A DNA stretch of 64,000 bases from a phage: the sequence record NC_135731.1; one strand, given 5' to 3'. The notes under the pieces were generated by a model. That model searched no databases. It was given only the letters and a program-made list of their open reading frames with translations, and had not been told where the DNA came from. Shown piece by piece: positions 3,290-16,526 of this stretch. Position numbers and translations under genes: made by a program. The first letter of the stretch is position 1. Every line of letters begins with the position of its first letter.

Positions 3290-4280
3290 ACAGACAGGAT
3301 TATCGAATCCTTATATTCAAAGGTGGTCGCAACACCACCCTCCGCACCATTACGTGCTGCTGCATGTTACCATGCAGAGTAGACTATATCACCACCCATC
3401 TCAGGGTGCTTCGCTTTTCGAGCGCCATAAGCTTGCGCCCTACTCCCTCTCGGGATAGTCGTTGAACTACATTACCAATCGTAATTGTTTGAAATATAGG
3501 TGTAAGTCTTACGGTCTTTTATTCCTTTAACAACACTAAAACTTACTCCCCACTTCTTAGCTATTTTATTTACACACAAAACCCTATCACTAAGATCCTC
3601 GCAGATACCTATTATCTTGTGCTCACTTATCCTATTAGAGGTTGGCACTTTTCTAAAGTTAAACTCTTTAGAAATATCTGGGTATACTGAGCCATTCTTT
3701 ATACCACTTACAAGTGGTTGATTGACACCAAACATTTCACAAATGTCTTTTACCCTTGCACCTTGCTCTAACAGCCTACATATTTCAAGAGCAGTGGCAT
3801 CATCTAGGGACCTGTATTTATTGACATAGTCCTTTTTAAGTCCCATTTCATGAGCGTGATGTGTGTTTTCCTCAGGCGTTGTCCACTCAAGGTTCCATGC
3901 GGCGTTATTCAACTTATTACCATCCAGGTGGTTTACTTGAGTTTTCACGCTGGGATTATCATTATCAACAAAAGCCATAGCGATAACTCTATGGACTAGC
4001 ACTTGGAACTTTTTCCCGCCCTCGCACAAAGTGACCATAGCATAGCCAGTCTTTTTCTGCACATTAGGATGGAGGAATTTATTAGAATACAGACTGTAAA
4101 TTCTGCCATCGTATGTAGCACAATAATGATTGTAGCCTAAAAAGCCTAAATTTCTCATTTCAAACATCTCCCTACTACAGGTTCGGAAGGGTAATTATAG
4201 CTGCTGATTGTCCGTTTAGCAATCGGATTTTCCAGCAATTAACGAAGTTATTCGACGTGCATTTCTGCACGAAGCCACTA
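3290..4280 (-). mobile_element. putative group I intron 2 in terL, carrying HNH homing endonuclease
   Basis: Non-coding GC-rich flanks around HNH ORF; 3' core motif ccatgcaga..agactatatc (plus strand 3372-3395) shared with the other terL intron and, as GATAGTCTGG, with the nrdD intron; boundaries approximate. Confidence 0.5.
3472..4167 (-). CDS. HNH homing endonuclease (intron-encoded)
   Basis: HNH_3-type motif VHRVIAMAFVDN...VNHLDGNKLNNAAWNLEWTTPEENTHHA; located between terL exons. Confidence 0.8.
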   Translation of the reverse strand: MFEMRNLGFLGYNHYCATYDGRIYSLYSNKFLHPNVQKKTGYAMVTLCEGGKKFQVLVHRVIAMAFVDNDNPSVKTQVNHLDGNKLNNAAWNLEWTTPEENTHHAHEMGLKKDYVNKYRSLDDATALEICRLLEQGARVKDICEMFGVNQPLVSGIKNGSVYPDISKEFNFRKVPTSNRISEHKIIGICEDLSDRVLCVNKIAKKWGVSFSVVKGIKDRKTYTYISNNYDW

Positions 4281-4571
4281 TCATTTAATGGTTGCGCCTA
4301 TGAACGAGAATGACAACGGTCTTGGCTTGATCTCTACACCCAGTCCGTTAACCGTGGTGTATTTCTCTATCAACTCTTCCTTAGAGTCTCCCCAAATAAA
4401 TTCACCGTCGCGTCGGATAAAATATCTTTTCTTACCGCATTTTTCCGGATCTGGATACCCTTCATCGTCCAACCACCATCTAACCAGTTTGGCAAGCATG
4501 TGTTCTGAATCGGGGTTACAGCTGATAACCATTCTTGATGGATACTTTGACTGAGATCGCAGACGAGACAT
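4281..4571 (-). CDS. terL: terminase large subunit, middle exon
   Basis: SRMVISCNPD...LVRWWLDDEGYPD typical of terminase middle region; frame open upstream to about 4607; true splice junctions not determined. Confidence 0.55.
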   Translation of the reverse strand: MSRLRSQSKYPSRMVISCNPDSEHMLAKLVRWWLDDEGYPDPEKCGKKRYFIRRDGEFIWGDSKEELIEKYTTVNGLGVEIKPRPLSFSFIGATIK

Positions 4572-5484
4572 CAGGTAGTCTATCTGCTCCCATTCGAATT
4601 GTGTCGTTTATGTTCAGGCAAGGTCGCTAGTCTTGCCCCGCCATTTTCAGGCAGCTGCATGTCTCCATGCAGACCAGACTATATCTTATGAATGTGTAAA
4701 TACTCTGCCGCTCTAAGAATAGTTTCCTCATCTTCTTGGAAGAAACCTAAAGCTCTGTTGCATTTATCACAAAGCAACCCTCTTACAGCACCAGTTTTAT
4801 GGTCATGATCAACACAAAAGAAATCTCTGTACCCTTGCGTCCTATACTCATCGAGAGATATTCTACAAATGGCACACTTATGATCTTGATCTGAGAGTAG
4901 ACGATAGTATTCATCTTTTGTTATGTGAAATTTCTTCTCAATCTGATAAAACTTTTCACACATCTTACACCTGTTCGTAACCAGATATACTTTACCATAG
5001 TCACGTTTTGTGTAAAAACTATCAGCGAGCATACTTTCATGACAAGATTTGCATTCAAAAAGTTCACCTTTCTTCAGCAAGTCTTGAATAAATAATGCTG
5101 CGTCATCTCTCTTAACCATATTTTTGTTTTTACGAGATCCACCCTTCCTGTAGTACATATAGCATTCCTTGCATGTACCTGAGTATCCATCCTTGCTCTT
5201 AGATGATAAAAAGAAATCATCAATAGGTAGAACTCTTTGGCAATCCATACATTTTTTAGTATTACACATTCATCCTCCCGTTTCGAATCGCTTGATTCTA
5301 CGTCTTTCGACTAGTCGTTGAACGTTCATCCTCTCGGATGCTTCGCTGCGGATTATCTAAATTAACACACTGTTACCATACCTTCGATCTCTCTTCGAAG
5401 CCTCTATTATGTTACCATAGCAGGTTGGTGGTGTCAATAATAAAGATTTCCCCGCAATTAGGGAGGTTTTACGAGAGCTACAAA
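4572..5484 (-). mobile_element. putative group I intron 1 in terL, carrying EndoVII-like homing endonuclease
   Basis: Non-coding flanks around nuclease ORF; shared motifs gatatagtctgg and agactag (minus sense) just downstream of the ORF stop; boundaries approximate. Confidence 0.5.
4679..5269 (-). CDS. endonuclease VII-like (zinc-binding) homing endonuclease, intron-encoded
   Basis: Signature CVDHDHKTGAVRGLLCDKCNRALG matches the DHDH-TG-RG-LC-CN core of T4 endonuclease VII family; additional CxxC pairs. Confidence 0.75.
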   Translation of the reverse strand: MCNTKKCMDCQRVLPIDDFFLSSKSKDGYSGTCKECYMYYRKGGSRKNKNMVKRDDAALFIQDLLKKGELFECKSCHESMLADSFYTKRDYGKVYLVTNRCKMCEKFYQIEKKFHITKDEYYRLLSDQDHKCAICRISLDEYRTQGYRDFFCVDHDHKTGAVRGLLCDKCNRALGFFQEDEETILRAAEYLHIHKI

Positions 5485-5913
5485 TTAACCCTCATCGAAG
5501 CAAACCATGGTATACTCAAGCCCCTGGTGGTTAAGCTTATCTTGTACATACTCCATATGGCAGTATTTTACAACAGCTCCCTTTTTGCTTCTATCCCACT
5601 TACCAGTGTTCGGATCAAACCGTGGAAAAATGAACTTATGATCCTTCTCTCTGAACTTTGGCTTAATGTTTTCAGGCAGATCACTATAAATAGCTACTGC
5701 TTTAGGCCATAGTCCACCCTCACCTTCCAACTGTGGGGTTGTTCTTCGGAACATAACCACAGAACTATGGGGGTCATCAATAATTTTAAGTGGCATCAAC
5801 TGCAAGAGGAACGACTTGCCAGACCCTGCGGCACCGCCGATTACCAAAATATCTGCATCGTTTTCTAGGATCATCTTCTGCTTTTCAGAACACGGTCCGT
5901 AAATCTTAGACAT
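5485..5913 (-). CDS. terL: terminase large subunit, N-terminal exon (ATPase)
   Basis: Walker A VIGGAAGSGKSF; ends ...MVCFDEG (Walker B-like) immediately before in-frame stop, as expected at a group I 5' splice site. Confidence 0.65.
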   Translation of the reverse strand: MSKIYGPCSEKQKMILENDADILVIGGAAGSGKSFLLQLMPLKIIDDPHSSVVMFRRTTPQLEGEGGLWPKAVAIYSDLPENIKPKFREKDHKFIFPRFDPNTGKWDRSKKGAVVKYCHMEYVQDKLNHQGLEYTMVCFDEG

Positions 5914-6200
5914 TAACCTCTCTCCTTTGGAAACAGTGTTCTAATATAGTCTTGCAAAATGATCAATTTAGCTCTATCATTGCTACAAGACAGATTATTA
6001 TCCCTCATAATGCCAGAATTCACTGCATCTGGAGCACCTTTCTTCAAAGGCATAGCTTTAGCAGGTGGTTTCATGGCACCTTCCGGGGGTTTAACAATCA
6101 ACCTTCCTACATCCGGAGGGTCAATCTTGTATTCTCTCTCAACGCTGGTTGCACACCCACATAATAACAAGCACACAATAAACAGTGTAGCAACTCTCAT
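5913..6200 (-). CDS. putative o-spanin (outer-membrane lipoprotein, Rz1-like)
   Basis: Signal peptide with lipobox-like LLLCGCATS, proline-rich, 95 aa, overlaps upstream i-spanin-like gene by 4 nt. Confidence 0.4.
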   Translation of the reverse strand: MRVATLFIVCLLLCGCATSVEREYKIDPPDVGRLIVKPPEGAMKPPAKAMPLKKGAPDAVNSGIMRDNNLSCSNDRAKLIILQDYIRTLFPKERG

Positions 6201-6595
6201 CTATCCCCCTGATTGATACTCTCATTATAAATATCTATAAGCTGATCAGGAAGTGTTGACTTCTTACCTTCAGGTGATTGGAGGTAGATAATCTGCTTTT
6301 CTCTACCTGCCCTCTCAGCTATATTTAATTTATCCTGCAGATCAGAAAGAGATTTTTCAAGGTTTTTAACCTCCTCTGCGTGGCCCATTTTAATTTTGTC
6401 GGCCTGCTTTTGTTGCTGATCAAGGATCCGTTCCCACTTTAACTCTGTTGCTGACACACCATCTTGGTAGGCATCATTAAGCTTAGAGTTAAACCAATAC
6501 ACGGCCCCAAGATAAGCTGCACCTATAGCCGCTGCAAAAACTAAACCTTTTATGATCCCTCTATACCTACTCAGCCATGTTAAACCTGAAATCAT
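6197..6595 (-). CDS. putative i-spanin (Rz-like)
   Basis: N-terminal TM segment (LVFAAAIGAAYLGAVYWF) followed by charged coiled-coil-like region; paired with lipoprotein gene. Confidence 0.4.
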   Translation of the reverse strand: MISGLTWLSRYRGIIKGLVFAAAIGAAYLGAVYWFNSKLNDAYQDGVSATELKWERILDQQQKQADKIKMGHAEEVKNLEKSLSDLQDKLNIAERAGREKQIIYLQSPEGKKSTLPDQLIDIYNESINQGDR

Positions 6596-6604
6596 TTTAA
6601 GGCT

Positions 6605-6640
6605 CCAGAAACGAAAAAACCCCGCAGCTATACAGCTAAC
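6605..6640 (-). terminator. rho-independent terminator (minus strand)
   Basis: Minus-sense hairpin CCCCGTTAGCTGTATAGCTGCGGGG followed by TTTTTTCG, downstream of gene 6701..6970. Confidence 0.55.
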
Positions 6641-6700
6641 GGGGCGGGTTAAAATTGAGTAACCTAAATAGATCGAAACTAACTAAAAGGAGACTAATAC

Positions 6701-7016: not shown

Positions 7017-7093
7017 TGGTCTCCACGGAGTGATTCGAACACTCGACCTCCTGATCCCAAATCAGGCGCTCTACCAAGCTGAGCTACGCGGAG
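7017..7093 (-). tRNA. tRNA-Pro (anticodon UGG)
   Basis: Minus sense CTCCGCGTAGCTCAGCTTGGTAGAGCGCCTGATTTGGGATCAGG...GTTCGAATCACTCCGTGGAGACCA; cloverleaf hand-folded, anticodon loop TTTGGGA, encoded CCA. Confidence 0.7.
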
Positions 7094-7104
7094 TATTTAT
7101 AATT

Positions 7105-7179
7105 TGGTGGCCCTGGGTGGAATTGAACCACCGTCTGGCGATTATGAGTCGCTTGCTTGAACCTTCCAGCTACAGGGCC
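7105..7179 (-). tRNA. tRNA with CAU anticodon (Met, fMet or Ile-lysidine)
   Basis: Minus sense GGCCCTG...anticodon loop CTCATAA...GGTTCAATTCCACCCAGGGCCACCA; acceptor and T-arm pair well, D-stem weak. Confidence 0.6.
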
Positions 7180-7180
7180 A

Positions 7181-7256
7181 TGGTGCTGATGGCAGGACTT
7201 GAACCTGCAACCTATTGATTACAAATCAATTGCACTACCAATTGTGCTACATCAGC
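7181..7256 (-). tRNA. tRNA-Thr (anticodon UGU)
   Basis: Minus sense GCTGATGTAGCACAATTGGTAGTGCAATTGATTTGTAATCAAT...GGTTCAAGTCCTGCCATCAGCACCA; all four arms fold. Confidence 0.75.
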
Positions 7257-7262
7257 AAAAAG

Positions 7263-7360
7263 GTGCTAGGTGATGGAATCGAACCATCTATGTATTCAAC
7301 GACTACCTCGTCTATTTTCAGGATTAAAAATCCTCGCCCTTGCCAAAGGGCTTACCTAGC
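7263..7360 (-). tRNA. atypical tRNA-like element (about 98 nt; anticodon unresolved, possibly UUU)
   Basis: Perfect acceptor stem GCTAGGT/ACCTAGC, D-arm GCCC..GGGC and T-arm GATGGTTCGATTCCATC, but about 31 nt lie between anticodon stem and T-stem and CCA is not encoded. Confidence 0.35.
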
Positions 7361-7458
7361 TCAGTATGTTGACCATGTTGCTAGTCGGCGATGACGACTG
7401 TAACATTTGATAATCCGGTTCTGCTTCCGGCTTTCGCTTAATTACAAGGCCAACAATG

Positions 7459-7549
7459 TGGCGGAGAGTAATGGAATCGAACCATCATCGAGTCATCCTC
7501 AATGGGACGGTTTTCAAGACCGCTTGAGCACCATTGCTCCCTACCCTCC
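7459..7549 (-). tRNA. tRNA-Ser (anticodon UGA), type II
   Basis: Minus sense GGAGGGT...anticodon arm GCGGTCTTGAAAACCGT...long variable arm...GGTTCGATTCCATTACTCTCCGCCA; 91 nt; anticodon arm matches E. coli tRNA-Ser(UGA). Confidence 0.65.
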
Positions 7550-7663
7550 TTTATAAATTATACTGATAATGACACTGATTTTCGAGCAGTTAGTGACTAG
7601 TATAAACGACGATAAATATCAATGCCATTATCTGTATTATTTATGCATCTAAAAATATAAATT

Positions 7664-7750
7664 TGGTGGGGAGTGGTGGAGTCGAACCACCCGAGTCGCA
7701 ATGACAATAGATTTACAGTCTACACCGCTACCTCTACGGGATAACTCCCC
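7664..7750 (-). tRNA. tRNA-Tyr (anticodon GUA), type II
   Basis: Minus sense GGGGAGT...TAGACTGTAAATCTA...GGTTCGACTCCACCACTCCCCACCA; 87 nt; anticodon loop CTGTAAA. Confidence 0.65.
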
Positions 7751-7754
7751 AATT

Positions 7755-7829
7755 TGGCACCCCGTACTGGACTCGAACCAGTGTCAACGGCTTAGAAGGC
7801 CGCTGCTTTATCCACTAAGCTAACAGGGT
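7755..7829 (-). tRNA. tRNA-Arg (anticodon UCU)
   Basis: Minus sense ACCCTGTTAGCTTAGTGGATAAAGCAGCGGCCTTCTAAGCCGT...CTGGTTCGAGTCCAGTACGGGGTGCCA; A1:U72 acceptor pair. Confidence 0.6.
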
Positions 7830-10295: not shown

Positions 10296-10367
10296 AATAG
10301 TTTCTGTTCCATGGTGAACATAAAACATACAAATCCTTATAGTACAGATATTTAAGTTTTTACTGGT

Positions 10368-10718
10368 CTAACCAGTTGTTGACATTCGAATAACTTCTTC
10401 TGGTGGCAAAACTTTGGAAAATGTGCATCTTTTACCTCTCCCTTGTGTGGATGTTTCAACAACTCCTGCACATTCTAAAGTTTTAACGCACGCTGCTGCT
10501 TTTGTTTTCTTTATCCCAACATCTGCTGCAATTTTCCTTGTGCTTGGTGTGAAGTGTGAATTTCCTCCAAGCTTATACCAGTTGTGCAGGTAGCAGTATA
10601 CAATCTTGTCATACAAGTCAAGAACAACAACCTCCCCAGTTGTGTCATTCAAAACTTTTGACATAGATAGTATTTCAAGGGGGACTTTAAGATATAGCAG
10701 CTTATCCCCATCTTTCAT
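10368..10718 (-). CDS. hypothetical protein, possible DNA-binding protein
   Basis: 116 aa ORF immediately upstream (minus sense) of the iteron array; HTH-like segment TRKIAADVGIKKTKAAACVKTL. Confidence 0.35.
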   Translation of the reverse strand: MKDGDKLLYLKVPLEILSMSKVLNDTTGEVVVLDLYDKIVYCYLHNWYKLGGNSHFTPSTRKIAADVGIKKTKAAACVKTLECAGVVETSTQGRGKRCTFSKVLPPEEVIRMSTTG

Positions 10719-10765
10719 ATCTCCTGATTCTCCTTGTGTGGCAATTTTCTTTAAAATAGCAGGGA

Positions 10766-11320
10766 TTACTCCCTGCTGTCAATATCAAAACTCATTGCAA
10801 TACGGTATGCCTCTTCTAATGGTAAGAGTCTCCCCCACACATCCCAACCGACATCAAGCTGCCTGCCAAACAACTGTTGTGTGGTTCCGTGAGCATGACC
10901 GAACAGTTGGACTGATCCGTGAGGCTTTCTGTTCCACTTTGCAAACTGGTAATGGCTCATACAGATCAAATTCTTGTTGTGGCGAAGCTCGTAATAATCT
11001 ACAACCTCATGACCGAACTCTTTCATAATTCTGACAGTCGTTCTTGTGTCATGGTTGCCACGAACAAGAATAATATGTCCGTTCAACATATTTAGAATAT
11101 CTGGAAGTAAGTTGTTGATATTCTTATCATTAGTGCACGCAATATCTCCCAGGTGGAACACAGTGTCTGCAGGTGACACAACAGAGTTCCACTCGGCGAT
11201 GATTCCAGCATTCATACTATCAAGATTGTGATCATACTGAGATCTGTGTTTTTGACATGACTCAAACTCCATGACCCGCTGGTGGAGAAAGTGTGTGTCG
11301 CTTGTTACAAAGTATTTCAT
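10766..11320 (-). CDS. calcineurin-like metallophosphoesterase (putative polynucleotide 3'-phosphatase)
   Basis: Track ORF 10766..11422; start re-set to MKYFVTSDTHF; motifs DxH (SDTHF), GDIACTND, GNHD. Confidence 0.6.
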   Translation of the reverse strand: MKYFVTSDTHFLHQRVMEFESCQKHRSQYDHNLDSMNAGIIAEWNSVVSPADTVFHLGDIACTNDKNINNLLPDILNMLNGHIILVRGNHDTRTTVRIMKEFGHEVVDYYELRHNKNLICMSHYQFAKWNRKPHGSVQLFGHAHGTTQQLFGRQLDVGWDVWGRLLPLEEAYRIAMSFDIDSRE

Positions 11321-11327
11321 ACATTCC

Positions 11328-11745
11328 TCATTTAAGTTTAATGCAGTTTTTAAGTTGGCGTTCCATACGATCCACAACCTCGTCTGAAGCATGAATGCTT
11401 TTATTACCGTGGCGGTTTTCAACCACGATCACGGTATAACTATACCCATAACTGATTGCCATGTCAACATATTCCTGCACATGTTTTTCTTTTGTAAAAG
11501 TATTACTTACCACGATACGGTCGTATCCCATACGCATCATATCTTCTACGTTATCTTTGCACCATTTTGCTGCGAGTGTTAATTTACTTGCATCCCAGTT
11601 GTAATTGCCGTCATCGTCATACCAGAACATGTCGTTCTCAAAATGTGGATACAGGCCTTCTAAAGATAGCGCATTTGCCAGTGTTGATTTGCCAGACCCC
11701 GGCAGACCACGCACGATATATAGCATTTTAGACATAGCAATCCTC
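11328..11745 (-). CDS. P-loop kinase (putative polynucleotide 5'-kinase)
   Basis: Track ORF 11328..11792; start re-set to MSKMLYIVRGLPGSGKST with RBS; Walker A GLPGSGKST; about 139 aa; adjacent to phosphoesterase and RNA ligase. Confidence 0.5.
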
Positions 11746-11835
11746 CGTTTTAATTTTAATGATAGTATACCTAACTGTTTTGTTAATTTCAAGTGTTGAC
11801 ACTAGGTTATTTGTGTGGCAGGATAGACTGACAAA

Positions 11836-12771
11836 ATGACAAATGAGGAACGTATGATGAAGTATTTTAATGCAGATGACCTAGTAGACAAAGGTCTTGT
11901 AACCAGTCGGTATTATCCAGATCTTGGATTAAAGATCTATAAATATGCCAGAAAAGTATTCTACAACAATCTGTGGCATTTGTCTCCGCGTTTACTGGAG
12001 TGCCGAGGTATTGTTGTTGGCAATGAGGGGAATGTTGTGGCATGGCCTTTCACAAAAGTATTCAACTTAGGAGAAAACTCCACCAACCTACCGGACAGTA
12101 AACTTGTTACTGCGGTAGAGAAAAAGAACGGATTCCTCGGTGTGGTATCATCTCATAAAGGTGAACTGTTGTTCTCAACAACCGGGTCTCTTGATTCCCC
12201 ATATTGTAACCTCGCAAAAGAAACCATCATGGAGCAATGTGGTAATTTAGATCTTATCAAGAAGGTTATGGGCAATGAAAACATGACATTCATGTTTGAA
12301 ATTTGCCACCCTTCAGATCCGCATATTGTTCAGGAAGATCATGGCGCATATTTGATAGGTTGCAGATATAATGATTCTGGAATAATGCTACCAGAAGCAG
12401 CTTTAGACGGGATTGCCAAATACCTTGGTGCAAAACGTCCTCACACTGTGCGTGAAATTCCGTTCAGCTATGCAAAAGAATTAGCTGCAGAAACAAGAGG
12501 TGAAGGGTATATGATTCGTAAGCCTTACTACCCTTATGATCTGCAGCTGAAGATCAAGTCTCCATACTATCTGGCACGGAAGGCTGTAATGAGGGGTAAA
12601 GCTTGGAAGATTTGGGATGATGATATCTTTAAACGTGTTGACGAAGAGTTTTACGGTATGGTAAAATTTATTCGTAGCAACTATACAGAAGATGTGTGGA
12701 ATTGCTTATTAGAGCAGGAGCGTCGTGAGATACTGGACTACTATTTCCACAACGAGGACTATATGCAATGA
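11836..12771 (+). CDS. RNA ligase (Rnl-type nucleotidyltransferase)
   Basis: Nucleotidyltransferase motif I KKNGFLG, motif IV EGYMIRK, motif V LKIKS; divergent from kinase/phosphatase pair. Confidence 0.55.
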   Translation: MTNEERMMKYFNADDLVDKGLVTSRYYPDLGLKIYKYARKVFYNNLWHLSPRLLECRGIVVGNEGNVVAWPFTKVFNLGENSTNLPDSKLVTAVEKKNGFLGVVSSHKGELLFSTTGSLDSPYCNLAKETIMEQCGNLDLIKKVMGNENMTFMFEICHPSDPHIVQEDHGAYLIGCRYNDSGIMLPEAALDGIAKYLGAKRPHTVREIPFSYAKELAAETRGEGYMIRKPYYPYDLQLKIKSPYYLARKAVMRGKAWKIWDDDIFKRVDEEFYGMVKFIRSNYTEDVWNCLLEQERREILDYYFHNEDYMQ

Positions 12772-13118
12772 AGAAGTGGATTGTGTGGCTTGATGATTTT
12801 AGAGATCCGTCAGATTATGGACTCCCAGACGCTCTGTGGCTAAAGAATTCTTCTGAGTTTATGGATTTTCTTAATGATAAGAGAAAGCTCTACAGACGCG
12901 TATCTGAGTGGTATTTTGACAATGATCTAGGTGAAGTTCTTGAAGGGTACGACTGCTTCTCTGCGCTAGAGGAGAAACTTGTATTCGGAAAGCCACCACT
13001 TATTGACAACGTGATTATTTTCGTGCATACTTCTAATCCATCGGCAGCTCGTAAATTTATGCTTGCTGCTGACTCATTCAAGAAGTTTGGAATAGAGATT
13101 AAACAAAACATCTACTGA
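12768..13118 (+). CDS. hypothetical protein
   Basis: 116 aa, ATGA overlap with RNA ligase stop; immediately precedes Sir2-like gene. Confidence 0.4.
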   Translation: MKKWIVWLDDFRDPSDYGLPDALWLKNSSEFMDFLNDKRKLYRRVSEWYFDNDLGEVLEGYDCFSALEEKLVFGKPPLIDNVIIFVHTSNPSAARKFMLAADSFKKFGIEIKQNIY

Positions 13119-13126
13119 GGACACTT

Positions 13127-13888
13127 ATGCGACGACTGATTATTATCTCCGGTGCTGGTTTGAGCGCTGAATCTGGTATCCCCACCTTCCGATCTGGTAG
13201 TACAGCAATGTGGGAGAATTTTAGCATCGATGAGGTATGCAACATCCACACCTTTGCCAAGAACTACGACAAGGTGCACGCATTCTATAATGCACGCCGT
13301 GCAGCTTTAGGGGGTGTTGAACCAAATATTGCCCATCTCCGCATCGCAGAATGGTATTCTCGTTGGTCTGGGCGTGTGATTAATCTTACAACCAACGTAG
13401 ATGATCTCTTGGAGCGTGCTGGTGTTAAACATGAAGATATCTTACATGTCCATGGGTATTTGCCTGAAATCACCTACGAAGATGCTGAAGGTAACGATGT
13501 AATTAAAAATATCGGATACACTGAGGTAGATACAGGCAAGTATATCTGGGTTAAGCCTAATGTGGTGTTCTTCGGAGAAGTAGCTCCGAAGTATACAGAC
13601 ATGTATGACCTGTTGACTTCTCTCACGAGCAATGATATGGTAATCCTGGTAGGTTGTTCTAACACAGTTATTAATTTTAACTGGGAATTGTTTCCTGCTA
13701 CTTGTAAAGGCACAAAACTGCTGATTGTAAACAAGTATGATTCGCAGAGTGCAGATGGAAGTGGCATTTCACGTAGCGACCTTTATCAATATGAGGATCG
13801 CGGGATCCCTGTATGGTTTAACGGTGCTGTTGACGCTTTCTCTGATAAAGCATTTATTGAAACTGTAGAAAACTTTATGGAACTGTAA
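13127..13888 (+). CDS. Sir2-like protein (sirtuin/NAD-binding fold)
   Basis: N-terminal motif GAGLSAESGIPTFRSG and HVHGYL His motif; no CxxC zinc-ribbon pairs seen. Confidence 0.65.
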   Translation: MRRLIIISGAGLSAESGIPTFRSGSTAMWENFSIDEVCNIHTFAKNYDKVHAFYNARRAALGGVEPNIAHLRIAEWYSRWSGRVINLTTNVDDLLERAGVKHEDILHVHGYLPEITYEDAEGNDVIKNIGYTEVDTGKYIWVKPNVVFFGEVAPKYTDMYDLLTSLTSNDMVILVGCSNTVINFNWELFPATCKGTKLLIVNKYDSQSADGSGISRSDLYQYEDRGIPVWFNGAVDAFSDKAFIETVENFMEL

Positions 13889-13902: not shown

Positions 13903-14616
13903 ATGCTAAATACTAAACTGATCGACAACCTGGAAAAACTGTCTCAGCCTGAAAACTACCTTTGGTCTGCCAACTGGGTGGAAAACTGGAACCGTGTGGC
14001 AGCTAAAGTGAAAAAATCATACACACCATTCGAATTACAGCTTAGCTTCATTGAGGAAGAGTTCAATGAGGTTTTGGAAGAGCTGGAGAAAGGTGATGGT
14101 GGAGATCACCTGCTAAAAGAGGCCTGCGATCTTCACGTTGTCACAAGTTATGCAGCCTATCTCGTTAATGACAATCACGAAAAGTGGTCAAACCTGTTTG
14201 ATAATCCACGAGGTCTTAAGTTCAAGATCGGTGAGTTCTATGATACACTGATCGCTGCGAAAAACACATCCAAGCAAAGATCGTCAGCTTACCGCTTAGC
14301 GGAGTTGTCAACAGCTTTGCTGTTCCAGCTTCGCGGCGATGTGTGCGGGATGATGCGTAAGGTTCTCAAATCGAATGACAGCAAGTTTGCACGGGTAAAC
14401 CATCTACGGCATTCACACGGTGCCAGTGCAGATATGCCTGCTGAACAACTCATCGAGTTGGAGATTAAAGATCTTGAGCGTCGTTTTGGTGGTCGCTACG
14501 AAGGTTTCGTTGCTAAAGAGGAGTTCTACAACGGCAATAAAGTTATTATATTCCTTGACAGTAAAGGTAAGATTATGAAGCCTTCGAGCTTCAAGGATGT
14601 AACAGAGTATATTTAA
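13903..14616 (+). CDS. hypothetical protein, possible MazG-like NTP pyrophosphohydrolase
   Basis: Acidic helix pattern EEEFNEVLEELEKGD...LLKEACDLH reminiscent of MazG/HisE fold; weak. Confidence 0.3.
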   Translation: MLNTKLIDNLEKLSQPENYLWSANWVENWNRVAAKVKKSYTPFELQLSFIEEEFNEVLEELEKGDGGDHLLKEACDLHVVTSYAAYLVNDNHEKWSNLFDNPRGLKFKIGEFYDTLIAAKNTSKQRSSAYRLAELSTALLFQLRGDVCGMMRKVLKSNDSKFARVNHLRHSHGASADMPAEQLIELEIKDLERRFGGRYEGFVAKEEFYNGNKVIIFLDSKGKIMKPSSFKDVTEYI

Positions 14617-14619
14617 CAA

Positions 14620-14647
14620 CATAGCCGGGATTACCCGGCTTTACTTA
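14620..14647 (+). terminator. rho-independent terminator
   Basis: Hairpin AGCCGGGATTACCCGGCT followed by TTACTT after stop of 13903..14616. Confidence 0.5.
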
Positions 14648-14987: not shown

Positions 14988-15243
14988 TCTTGCTAAACCT
15001 GTAGAAGCCCACCAGTTTGACGGAAGCTCTTCATCAGTATCTGATCTGCAACGGTGGATTGATACAGGTGTGTTTACATCGTCACCTGTTCGGACCAGAG
15101 ATCTTCGTCGCATGTGTGAGCTTGTCGAGCCTTTTGGTAACCTTGTCTTGTACCAGGGAGATTGGCTAGTTGACTTTATGGGAGACTGGTTGGTAATGAG
15201 TAAAGAAGAGATGTTTAAAATTTTTAAGGAAGAGGACGAGTAA
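14974..15243 (+). CDS. hypothetical protein
   Basis: 89 aa ORF, ATGA overlap with ligase start. Confidence 0.35.
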   Translation: MPLFNLAKPVEAHQFDGSSSSVSDLQRWIDTGVFTSSPVRTRDLRRMCELVEPFGNLVLYQGDWLVDFMGDWLVMSKEEMFKIFKEEDE

Positions 15244-16526
15244 TGCATCAGATCAAAACAACACTGTACGCACTGAATAAAGATGGCAGCTACCAACAGT
15301 GGAAAGTATTCACGGATGGTGATAAGGTTATCGTAGAGTTTGGCAAGCTTGATGGTAAACTGCAATACAAAGAGACGATCTGCACACCTAAGAACGTGGG
15401 TCGTGCCAATGAAACTACAGCTGAGCAACAGGCCGAGCTGGAAGCGATCAGTAAGTGGGAAAAACAAGTCCGTCTGGGGTATGTTGAAAACATGGAAGAT
15501 TGCGAGCAGGGTGTTGATCTTTTACCCATGCTGGTGCATGACTACCTGAAGCGTGGCAAGGCACTTAAATTACCTTGCTGGATCTTGCGTAAGTTAGATG
15601 GCCTTCGTCTGCTTGTTGTTTTCCAAAATGGTGAGCCTAAATTTATTTCCCGTGGTAATAAGTCCTACCCTATTCAAGGAAAGCTTTTAGAGCAACTTCG
15701 TTCTTTCCATTCTACCACTGGGATTAAACAACTTGATGGGGAACTATACATTCATGGTCTTCCTTTGCAGAAAATAGTGTCTCTTGCTAAACGGTGGCGC
15801 ACACAGGAAGAGATTCAGGCCGAGATCGATAAAGACTATGAGGCAGATAAAAAACGCCGTCATGCCGCAATTAAGGCAGGCTTATCAACATACAAAAACT
15901 TCAACAAGGTAGATATTCCTGTCGATGTTGAGCCTGTTCGTGATGATTTGCGTTACGGTGGGTACTGTAGCTACGATCTGGAGTATCACATTTTTGATAT
16001 TCCTAGCGACAAGGTGTGGTGGGATCCAGAAACAGAGTCTGGACGCTGCAAGGATCTTATGGATGCAGGGGATACCGTTACCACTCTGATGCTTGACCAT
16101 ATCAAGGTTGTTGACGCAGAGCTTGCGTACACAGTTGATCATTGTGAAGAATCTGTTGGTATATTCATGTCCGAAGGATATGAAGGTACTATCATGCGTA
16201 ATTTCTGCGGTAAATACGAGTACGGTCAGCGAACATCTGAAGCATTGAAATGGAAAAAGTTCAACGACGCAGAGGTGAAAGTTATTGACGTTGAGAAAGA
16301 TAAGAATGACGAAGGTGTTCTTATCTGTGTTGACAAGGAAGGTGTTATTGTTAAAATGAAGATGAAAGGCACGCACGAGGAGCGTAGCTATGACAGGATG
16401 CAGGAAATGATCGGCAAGTTTGTCACCTTCAAATATCAATCAAGGACAGAAGACAACAACTACCAATTCCCTGTCGGTATCTGCGTCCGAAATGTTAACC
16501 CAGATACTTGGGAGGTGCTTGAATGA
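15243..16526 (+). CDS. ATP-dependent DNA ligase (T7-like) with N-terminal extension
   Basis: KxDG adenylation motif in ILRKLDGLRLLV; DGELYIHG and EGTIMRN blocks parallel T7 ligase; ends in OB-fold-like region. Confidence 0.65.
   Translation: MHQIKTTLYALNKDGSYQQWKVFTDGDKVIVEFGKLDGKLQYKETICTPKNVGRANETTAEQQAELEAISKWEKQVRLGYVENMEDCEQGVDLLPMLVHDYLKRGKALKLPCWILRKLDGLRLLVVFQNGEPKFISRGNKSYPIQGKLLEQLRSFHSTTGIKQLDGELYIHGLPLQKIVSLAKRWRTQEEIQAEIDKDYEADKKRRHAAIKAGLSTYKNFNKVDIPVDVEPVRDDLRYGGYCSYDLEYHIFDIPSDKVWWDPETESGRCKDLMDAGDTVTTLMLDHIKVVDAELAYTVDHCEESVGIFMSEGYEGTIMRNFCGKYEYGQRTSEALKWKKFNDAEVKVIDVEKDKNDEGVLICVDKEGVIVKMKMKGTHEERSYDRMQEMIGKFVTFKYQSRTEDNNYQFPVGICVRNVNPDTWEVLE

Follow-up and report, generated by a model that had tools for sequence, protein, structure and literature searches.

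We analysed a window of 64,000 nucleotides from the phage sequence record NC_135731.1 and focused on three adjacent genes at positions 10766 to 12771, which encode a metallophosphoesterase, a small P-loop kinase and an ATP-dependent RNA ligase. The locus probably specifies a split 'heal-and-seal' RNA repair system, functionally equivalent to T4 Pnkp plus Rnl1, that would keep translation going while the host cleaves tRNAs. An original prediction, made from the letters of the sequence alone, had assigned the three separate genes to a kinase acting on 5' ends, a phosphoesterase acting on 3' ends and a ligase of the Rnl1 type, and profile searches, predicted folds, intact active sites and gene linkage back this assignment. 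The three open reading frames (ORFs) lie at the predicted positions and contain every motif quoted for them. Family assignments are far above chance: the Pfam matches pass their gathering cut-offs, and the PHROG matches have E-values of 6e-52 for the phosphoesterase (phrog_547), 1.7e-53 for the kinase (phrog_2071) and 1e-65 for the ligase. The system is genuine, plausible, and already known at the level of annotation and comparative genomics; the contribution made here is that the trio, rather than the sirtuin encoded beside it, is the conserved core.

The gene for the aq_1665-like binuclear metallophosphoesterase (10766..11320, minus strand, 184 amino acids (aa); Metallophos_2 1.4e-6, Metallophos 2.8e-6) and that for the stand-alone P-loop kinase (11328..11735, minus strand, 135 aa; AAA_33 1.3e-10) lie in tandem on the minus strand, as had been predicted, and diverge from the gene for the Rnl1-type ATP-dependent RNA ligase, the predicted sealing enzyme (11836..12771, plus strand, 311 aa), across an intergenic region of 100 bp (11736..11835). 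Since the kinase stop codon is only 7 nt ahead of the phosphoesterase start, we regard these two genes as one operon. The kinase ATG is preceded by a GGAGGA Shine-Dalgarno sequence 4 nt upstream. We placed the phosphoesterase start at the ATG of MKYFVTSDTHF, the mechanical ORF extending to 11422 from a TTG, and the ligase start is more probably 11854 (giving 305 aa) than 11836, following the annotation of phage HeinrichReichert. Region 10300-13200 of the window is 100% identical in Escherichia phage phiWec196 and 97-98.5% identical in many rV5-like phages of the genus Vequintavirus (97.6% in phage V5), and it is kept at >=90% identity in 118 of the 119 matching phage records.

The ligase carries the motifs KKNGFLG, EGYMIRK and LKIKS, matches the Pfam family RNA_lig_T4_1 (PF09511) at 2e-14 (54.5 bits, cut-off 28.3), and has 1680 homologues at E<=1e-5. 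Single-sequence searches of the PDB with the ligase and the kinase gave nothing useful, and family profiles were required. A profile of 39 ligase homologues matched T4 Rnl1 (2c5u) at 5.6e-12, and T4 Rnl1 was also the best structural match of the AF2 model (pLDDT 91.7). Motif I of the ligase, K96-K-N-G99, aligns with K99-E-D-G102 of T4, and K96, N98 and G99 are invariant among the 39 homologues, as are R57, K74, F76, E155, E223-G224 and K239/K241, which align with T4 R54, K75, F77, E159, E227-G228 and K240/K242. A list of essential T4 Rnl1 residues was reportedly drawn up by Wang, Ho, Pei and Shuman in 2003. Motif I, motifs III, IV and V, the upstream residues, the curated family score and the fold all agree with the Rnl1-type clade. 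Against the NCBIfam equivalog of T4 RnlA (TIGR02308) the protein scores 39.4 bits, the cut-off being 242.25, and only ~65 residues lie beyond its nucleotidyltransferase domain, forming helices at 270-305. The helical C-terminal domain of T4 Rnl1 comprises ~120 residues and confers tRNA specificity. Because the equivalog score is missed and the C-terminal region is short, we class the ligase, on its sequence, as a member of the Rnl1/Trl1-LIG clade and not as an orthologue-level equivalent of T4 Rnl1. The invariant KxNG of motif I (12121..12132, residues 96-99) is the form carried by fungal Trl1-type ligases that depend on a 2'-PO4 (PMC10946426), T4 Rnl1 having KEDG.

The kinase has the predicted Walker-A motif, GLPGSGKST, and belongs to a very large family with at least 7987 matches, mostly stand-alone proteins of ~130 aa. 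It matches phrog_505 'polynucleotide kinase' at 1.5e-9, and its family profile found in the PDB a Mucorales kinase (9d8a, 8.6e-7), Pnkp1 (4xrp, 2.9e-5) and T4 Pnk (1ly1, 3.8e-5), with further matches to PSTK and CthPnk (4gp7, 6.6e-4). Foldseek searches with the AF2 model (pLDDT 89.3) returned as top matches CthPnk (4jt2/4gp6, TM 0.74-0.75) and T4 Pnk (1ly1/2ia5, TM 0.72-0.76), then PSTK (0.72), Pnkp1 (0.71), mammalian PNKP (0.67) and metabolite kinases (0.50-0.63), with modest E-values of about 1e-5 to 1e-6. Among 40 homologues, G10, G13, G15, K16, D35, N78, T79, E106, N107, R108 and H109 are invariant. The P-loop, G10-L-P-G-S-G-K16-S17, is intact, and D35 aligns with Asp35 of T4 Pnk, the general base of that enzyme (PMC2831316), so that the fold, the P-loop and the general-base Asp are common to the two kinases. 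Sequence and model together predict a polynucleotide (RNA) 5'-hydroxyl kinase.

The motifs of a calcineurin-like phosphoesterase that had been read in the remaining ORF (DxH, GDIA...ND and GNHD) are present, within SDTHF, HLGDIACTND and RGNHD, and the ORF also contains FGHAHG. The superfamily motifs that make up the two-metal site, D8-T-H10, G58-D59, G88-N89-H90-D, H123 and G141-H142-A-H144, and with them the metal ligands D8, H10, D59, N89, H90, H123, H142 and H144, are kept in every full-length orthologue aligned. The sole solved relative is PDB entry 1xm7 (Aquifex aq_1665), matched at 2.2e-10 by the single sequence and at 1.1e-14 by the family profile. Beyond weak matches to YfcE-like and GpdQ-like chains, the same profile found no lambda-phosphatase or Pnkp-type chain in the PDB at E<=0.1, and a literature search on the aq_1665 / 1xm7 family found nothing relevant. 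The original prediction had likened this enzyme to that of bacterial Pnkp, which holds at the level of the superfamily but not of the clade, which is that of aq_1665. We rejected the assignment as a Pnkp-type (lambda-Pase-like) phosphatase, since GDIACTND stands in place of GDxxDRG and no lambda-phosphatase or Pnkp chain was detected, and for the same reasons treat the likeness to bacterial Pnkp as a superfamily-level analogy only. The predicted task of the enzyme is the healing of 3' ends in RNA, with activity as a 2',3'-cyclic phosphodiesterase, a 2'/3'-phosphatase or both; CthPnkp offers a biochemical precedent, its binuclear metallophosphoesterase healing RNA ends as a 2',3'-cyclic phosphodiesterase (PMC2190708).

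We then asked how far the three genes keep together in other phages, using 22 ligase-anchored loci from outside the genus (17 contigs from IMG/VR and 5 phages from GenBank); this comparison supplied the strongest new support. In 20 of these loci the ligase has both a phosphoesterase homologue and a kinase homologue beside it, in four gene orders; examples come from Phapecoctavirus, Pakpunavirus, Thalassavirus (a siphovirus), Acinetobacter and Aeromonas phages, and IMG/VR contigs. The order is phosphoesterase-ligase-kinase in Phapecoctavirus, Pakpunavirus-like and Aeromonas phages, ligase-kinase-phosphoesterase in Vibrio phage Gary, a siphovirus, and in an Acinetobacter phage, and divergent in the window, so the linkage has been retained through rearrangement. 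Only a detectable kinase is missing from one of the two other loci (L018). The second, from Streptomyces phage StarPlatinum, lacks both the phosphoesterase and the kinase and has a T4-type Pnkp (AAA_33 plus HAD_PNKP) ~750 bp downstream of the ligase, a non-orthologous displacement that points to the same role. The StarPlatinum ligase is a distant relative of 358 aa, and it and the kinase-HAD Pnkp (L023, 207..486 and 3965..6686) sit amid tRNA genes and the gene for a phage tmRNA. In most lineages the trio is accompanied by neither Sir2 nor cREC, two of the genes that follow the ligase in the window. The phosphoesterase-ligase-kinase trio is thus a widely conserved core, and the sirtuin, cREC and MazG genes are lineage-restricted add-ons.

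Anchoring on the kinase gave a compatible picture: in three of the five clusters sampled it is paired with the phosphoesterase, the two genes overlapping or abutting. One such pair, in freshwater phage contigs, lies ~2 kb from a ligase of the Rnl2 family, and another belongs to a cluster in which a PolyA_pol-family nucleotidyltransferase (possibly of the CCA-adding type), an Rnl1, the phosphoesterase and the kinase follow one another. Across a collection of 50,697 phage records, the ligase occurs in 668 and the kinase in 619, with nearly identical host-genus profiles (ligase/kinase: Escherichia 198/197, Pseudomonas 175/173, Klebsiella 36/36, Acinetobacter 24/24). An indirect hint comes from phrog_8238 (737 positions, 'RNA ligase'), which matches the kinase at 2-109 and the ligase at 440-686 and so implies natural kinase-X-ligase fusions in other phages.

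In the heal-and-seal scheme that we favour, tRNA or other RNA would be cut by a ribonuclease of the host, be it an anticodon nuclease, a toxin or some other metal-independent RNase, leaving a 2',3'-cyclic phosphate and a 5'-OH. The binuclear metallophosphoesterase would open, then remove, the 3'-terminal phosphate (2',3'-cyclic, 2'- or 3'-), the small kinase would phosphorylate the 5'-OH, and the Rnl1-type ligase, through Lys96-AMP, would activate the 5'-phosphate and seal it to the 3'-OH. The likely benefit would be translation sustained when host defences cleave tRNAs, alongside the phage tRNA genes. This last step, the counter-defence role, is one that we purely infer.

Several points weigh against this scheme. 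The kinase has no equivalent of T4 Arg38 (Asp+3), the residue to which the acceptor nucleotide's 3'-phosphate binds: the window has D35-M-F-W38, with W38 in that position, the family consensus is DMFF, and T4 R38 sits in an insert relative to the kinase profile. With a tail of ~65 residues on the ligase, as against the tRNA-specificity domain of T4 Rnl1, tRNA is to be read as a candidate target. The phosphoesterase clade, of uncharacterised function, is broader than the ligase and kinase families (1269 phage records), and its homologues in Herelleviridae have no adjacent kinase or Rnl1; the kinase, for its part, stands alone in two of the five kinase-anchored contexts. The literature searched shows no biochemical or genetic assay of any member of the ligase, kinase or phosphoesterase subfamilies. 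Finally, the tRNA-cleaving retrons Eco2 and Kva2 (HEPN nuclease) still defend against Vequintavirinae, so the module would not be a general shield.

A further such point is an ATP-dependent DNA ligase gene, often found 1-3 kb from the trio, which makes work on DNA ends possible. In the window this gene (15243..16526, plus strand) encodes 427 aa with a KLDGLR motif and begins 600 bp past the RNA-ligase operon. The kinase and phosphoesterase might then serve the DNA ligase in the manner of mammalian PNKP, their adjacency to an RNA ligase being secondary. The polynucleotide kinases of T4 and mammals also act on DNA, and the phosphoesterase has a faint NCBIfam match, far below cut-off, to the ligase-associated PdeM (1.9e-4). 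We nevertheless think DNA-end processing very unlikely, because the trio is intact with no DNA ligase within 4 kb in Vibrio phage Gary and an Acinetobacter phage, the kinase-phosphoesterase pair occurs beside two distinct RNA ligase families, and the kinase follows the RNA ligase in its phyletic profile.

Gene names in the databases suggest yet another reading. Related GenBank records call the three genes 'RNA ligase (and tail attachment protein)', 'phosphoesterase' and 'ATPase / polynucleotide kinase', and other entries read 'RNA ligase and tail fiber protein attachment catalyst'. The ligase would accordingly be a catalyst of tail-fibre attachment, the second activity of T4 gp63, whose name has been copied into many annotations, and the phosphoesterase or the kinase would degrade or modify nucleotide second messengers of host immunity; Iyer et al. 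have suggested cyclic nucleotide signals as possible targets of some phage enzymes of the calcineurin-like type (PMC7824862). We give such unrelated roles hardly any credence, as the locus lies among early genes of the nucleotide-metabolism type and not among tail genes, all catalytic residues of the ligase are strictly conserved, and the linkage of three genes across rearrangements would be hard to explain.

The predicted proximity to tRNA genes was borne out: seven lie at 7017..7829 (minus strand), about 3 kb from the trio. One of them (7264..7360, minus strand, anticodon UUU, Lys) has an insertion of ~27 nt in the variable region, which gives it a long extra arm, an unusual feature in a tRNA-Lys. 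The gene was miscalled by ARAGORN as 'tRNA-??? (atcc)'; it scores 37.5 bits with Rfam, and HeinrichReichert has a 97-nt tRNA-Lys. Since PrrC and PARIS classically attack tRNA-Lys(UUU), the phage copy could be a nuclease-resistant replacement.

These tRNA genes also bear on whether the enzymes might do housekeeping for the phage, in the maturation or quality control of its tRNA transcripts or in resealing RNAs cut by phage nucleases, instead of counter-defence. The closeness of the cluster with its odd tRNA-Lys, the presence of the ligase family in tRNA-rich phages (Pakpunavirus, Streptomyces phages) and the continued restriction of Vequintavirinae by tRNA-cleaving retrons would all fit. Among the seven tRNA genes, however, there is no anticodon-loop intron or split-gene arrangement that would need protein ligation, the need to heal cyclic-phosphate and 5'-OH ends implies that a metal-independent RNase did the damage, and the sole characterised phage precedent, T4 Pnkp plus Rnl1, is a counter-defence (PMC11494293). 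We consider a housekeeping role quite unlikely.

The extent of the module needed revision: the trio stood, but the positions first proposed were incomplete, overlooking three genes that are co-operonic with the ligase. The first encodes cREC, a cyclic-phosphate-processing receiver-like domain protein (12768..13118, plus strand, 116 aa; PF20274 cREC_REC 9.1e-14, phrog_1479 6e-33), and its start overlaps the ligase stop (ATGA). It is followed by a Sir2-family gene (13127..13888, plus strand, 253 aa; PF02146 1.4e-27, phrog_2162 3e-108) and by a candidate MazG/PRA-PH-like all-alpha pyrophosphohydrolase gene (13903..14616, plus strand, 237 aa; phrog_671 'nucleotide pyrophosphohydrolase' 1e-21, PF01503 PRA-PH weak at 0.077). 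The locus therefore comprises two divergent operons with six enzymes, not three. A terminator-like GC-rich hairpin from a consensus scan (14623..14640, plus strand; 7-bp stem with 6 GC pairs, AGCCGGGATTACCCGGCT, then a T-rich tail) would close the ligase operon. The intergenic region between the operons holds a promoter-like TTGAAA-17-TATACT on the minus strand (11792..11764) and, as read from the sequence, a plus-strand TTGACA hexamer at 11796, both being consensus matches only. Overall these scans did no better than shuffled controls (19 promoter sites vs 12.6 +/- 4.0, 3 terminators vs 3.0), and we use them descriptively.

The concept of cREC comes from a 2021 paper on jumbo phages (PMC7824862), and its function is a predicted one (PMC7824862, PMC9503650). 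Of the 342 phage records with a cREC gene, most have it next to the RNA ligase, and it tracks the ligase in Vequintavirinae and Stephanstirmvirinae. The cREC of Escherichia phage ESCO5 (L019, 2603..2947) is annotated as 'putative RNA ligase and tail attachment protein'; Pfam finds cREC_REC alone (3.9e-17), and on this domain content the name is an annotation error carried over from the neighbouring gene. The Sir2 protein retains GAGxS, TTNVD and the catalytic HG and lacks the CxxC...CxxC zinc module. Its identity to T5.102, the Sir2-like protein that phage T5 encodes with no RNA ligase nearby, is 57%, and its family occurs in 984 phage records, T5 included. With this distribution, Sir2 as an obligate part of the module is unproven and its membership of the repair pathway uncertain. 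A PRA-PH gene also accompanies the independent nucleotidyltransferase-Rnl1-phosphoesterase-kinase cluster. Together, cREC, Sir2 and the MazG-like enzyme may form an auxiliary route for handling cyclic phosphate, 2'-phosphate or ADP-ribose.

Unrelated phages repeatedly carry, a few kb or less from the trio or from a phosphoesterase on its own, genes for NAD+ salvage (ribose-phosphate pyrophosphokinase, nicotinamide phosphoribosyltransferase) and for Macro-domain proteins (PAK_P2, L020 5322..8148; Vibrio phage Gary, L021 7067..8900; also L004 3725..4186 and L034 7949..8480).

These neighbours raise the possibility of a repair pathway of the fungal or plant type. A 2'-phosphate would be left by cREC or the phosphoesterase, needed or tolerated by the ligase, and removed by Sir2 with NAD+, the ADP-ribose by-product being cleared by the MazG-like enzyme. 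The invariant KxNG motif, the shared operon, the Macro-domain and NAD-salvage genes (Prs, Nampt) of other lineages and the Tpt1/KptA-like role that Iyer et al. 2022 propose for the sirtuin (PMC9503650) would all suit such a pathway. On the other side, most lineages have the trio but neither Sir2 nor cREC, the Sir2 family is found in T5-like phages away from any RNA ligase, the ligase profile finds T4 Rnl1 in the PDB and no Trl1 chain at E<=1, no sirtuin is known as an RNA 2'-phosphotransferase, and KxNG has not been proven to determine dependence on a 2'-PO4. We consider this variant unlikely, and less likely than T4-like healing and sealing. The same low probability applies to its fullest form, a fungal-style, NAD+-dependent repair assembled from non-homologous parts, in which a KxNG ligase would join 2'-phosphate ends, the zinc-less Sir2 would be an analogue of Tpt1, cREC would be the cyclic phosphodiesterase and the aq_1665-type enzyme would heal ends. 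If true, it would mean a new sirtuin reaction, a new cyclic phosphodiesterase (cREC) and a new RNA end-healing family (aq_1665-type).

Returning to the heal-and-seal reading, a close functional parallel is T4 Pnkp plus Rnl1, a defence against the anticodon nuclease PrrC; the window is predicted to supply the same three activities, likewise phage-encoded and near phage tRNA genes. The two systems differ in their parts. T4 combines the kinase and the 3'-end enzyme in one Pnkp, whereas the proteins of the window are separate; its 3'-end enzyme is a DxDxT (HAD) acylphosphatase in place of a binuclear metallophosphoesterase; its Pnk has Arg38; and its Rnl1 has 374 aa and KxDG, compared with 311 aa, a much shorter C-terminal region and KxNG in the ligase of the window. 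Bacterial Pnkp systems (Clostridium thermocellum Pnkp-Hen1, Capnocytophaga Pnkp1-Rnl-Hen1) also combine a P-loop kinase, a metallophosphoesterase and an ATP-dependent ligase, and in Foldseek searches the kinase matches CthPnk best. Their domains, in contrast, are fused in one polypeptide, their phosphatase is of the lambda-phosphatase type and not aq_1665-like, and they include a Hen1 methyltransferase, which the locus lacks. Relative to fungal and plant Trl1 (LIG-KIN-CPD) plus Tpt1, the window has no 2H cyclic phosphodiesterase and no Tpt1 homologue, and its proteins are separate. We set aside the OLD tRNA paper as a relevant precedent, since T4 ligases serve in it only as reagents.

The locus itself has been described. 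Iyer, Burroughs, Anantharaman and Aravind 2022 (PMC9503650) defined a type 2 sirtuin-centred NAD+-dependent RNA repair neighbourhood, with Escherichia phage V5 and Proteus phage Mydo as prototypes, and predicted that it cleans up RNA ends for ligation. The window carries this same locus in a phage of the same genus as V5, and all six of the type 2 components (sirtuin, T4-like ligase, cREC, nucleotide kinase, MazG-family protein and calcineurin-like phosphoesterase) lie between 10766 and 14616. Iyer et al. centre the system on the sirtuin and call the phosphoesterase 'occasional', the opposite of what our sampling gives. A 2025 paper on Pakpunavirus (PMC12846349) predicts tRNA repair by a kinase and ligases and remarks that a 3'-phosphatase domain is missing; the adjacent phosphoesterase would fill that gap. 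The functional reading has thus been published independently (PMC9503650, PMC12846349), and with the genes already annotated and the neighbourhood in print, little is added here as discovery.

The value of the locus is as a well-supported candidate for biochemistry and knock-outs. Immunity by tRNA cleavage (PrrC, PARIS, retrons, Cas13, HEPN toxins) is now a major theme of phage biology, and phage-encoded RNA repair beyond T4 has barely been studied experimentally. Well over 600 phages with sequenced genomes carry the trio, among them therapy-relevant Pseudomonas Pakpunavirus, Klebsiella and E. coli phages, and it could influence host range on defence-rich strains. If the predicted activities are correct, both the aq_1665 metallophosphoesterase clade and the very large family of 130-aa kinases would gain an assigned function.

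Two minor observations arose from the comparisons. In Listeria phage List-36, about 3.5 kb separates a phosphoesterase homologue from the genes for an RtcB RNA ligase and a COG3236 (NADAR-like) protein (L035, 1..1216 and 3944..4561), another loose link between this clade and genes of RNA repair and ADP-ribose metabolism. Some 23 records named 'Campylobacter phage' (host C. jejuni; GenBank MG0656xx) are 86-100% identical at the locus to rV5-like or Phapecoctavirus-like coliphages, and these records are probably mislabelled or derived from contaminating coliphages.

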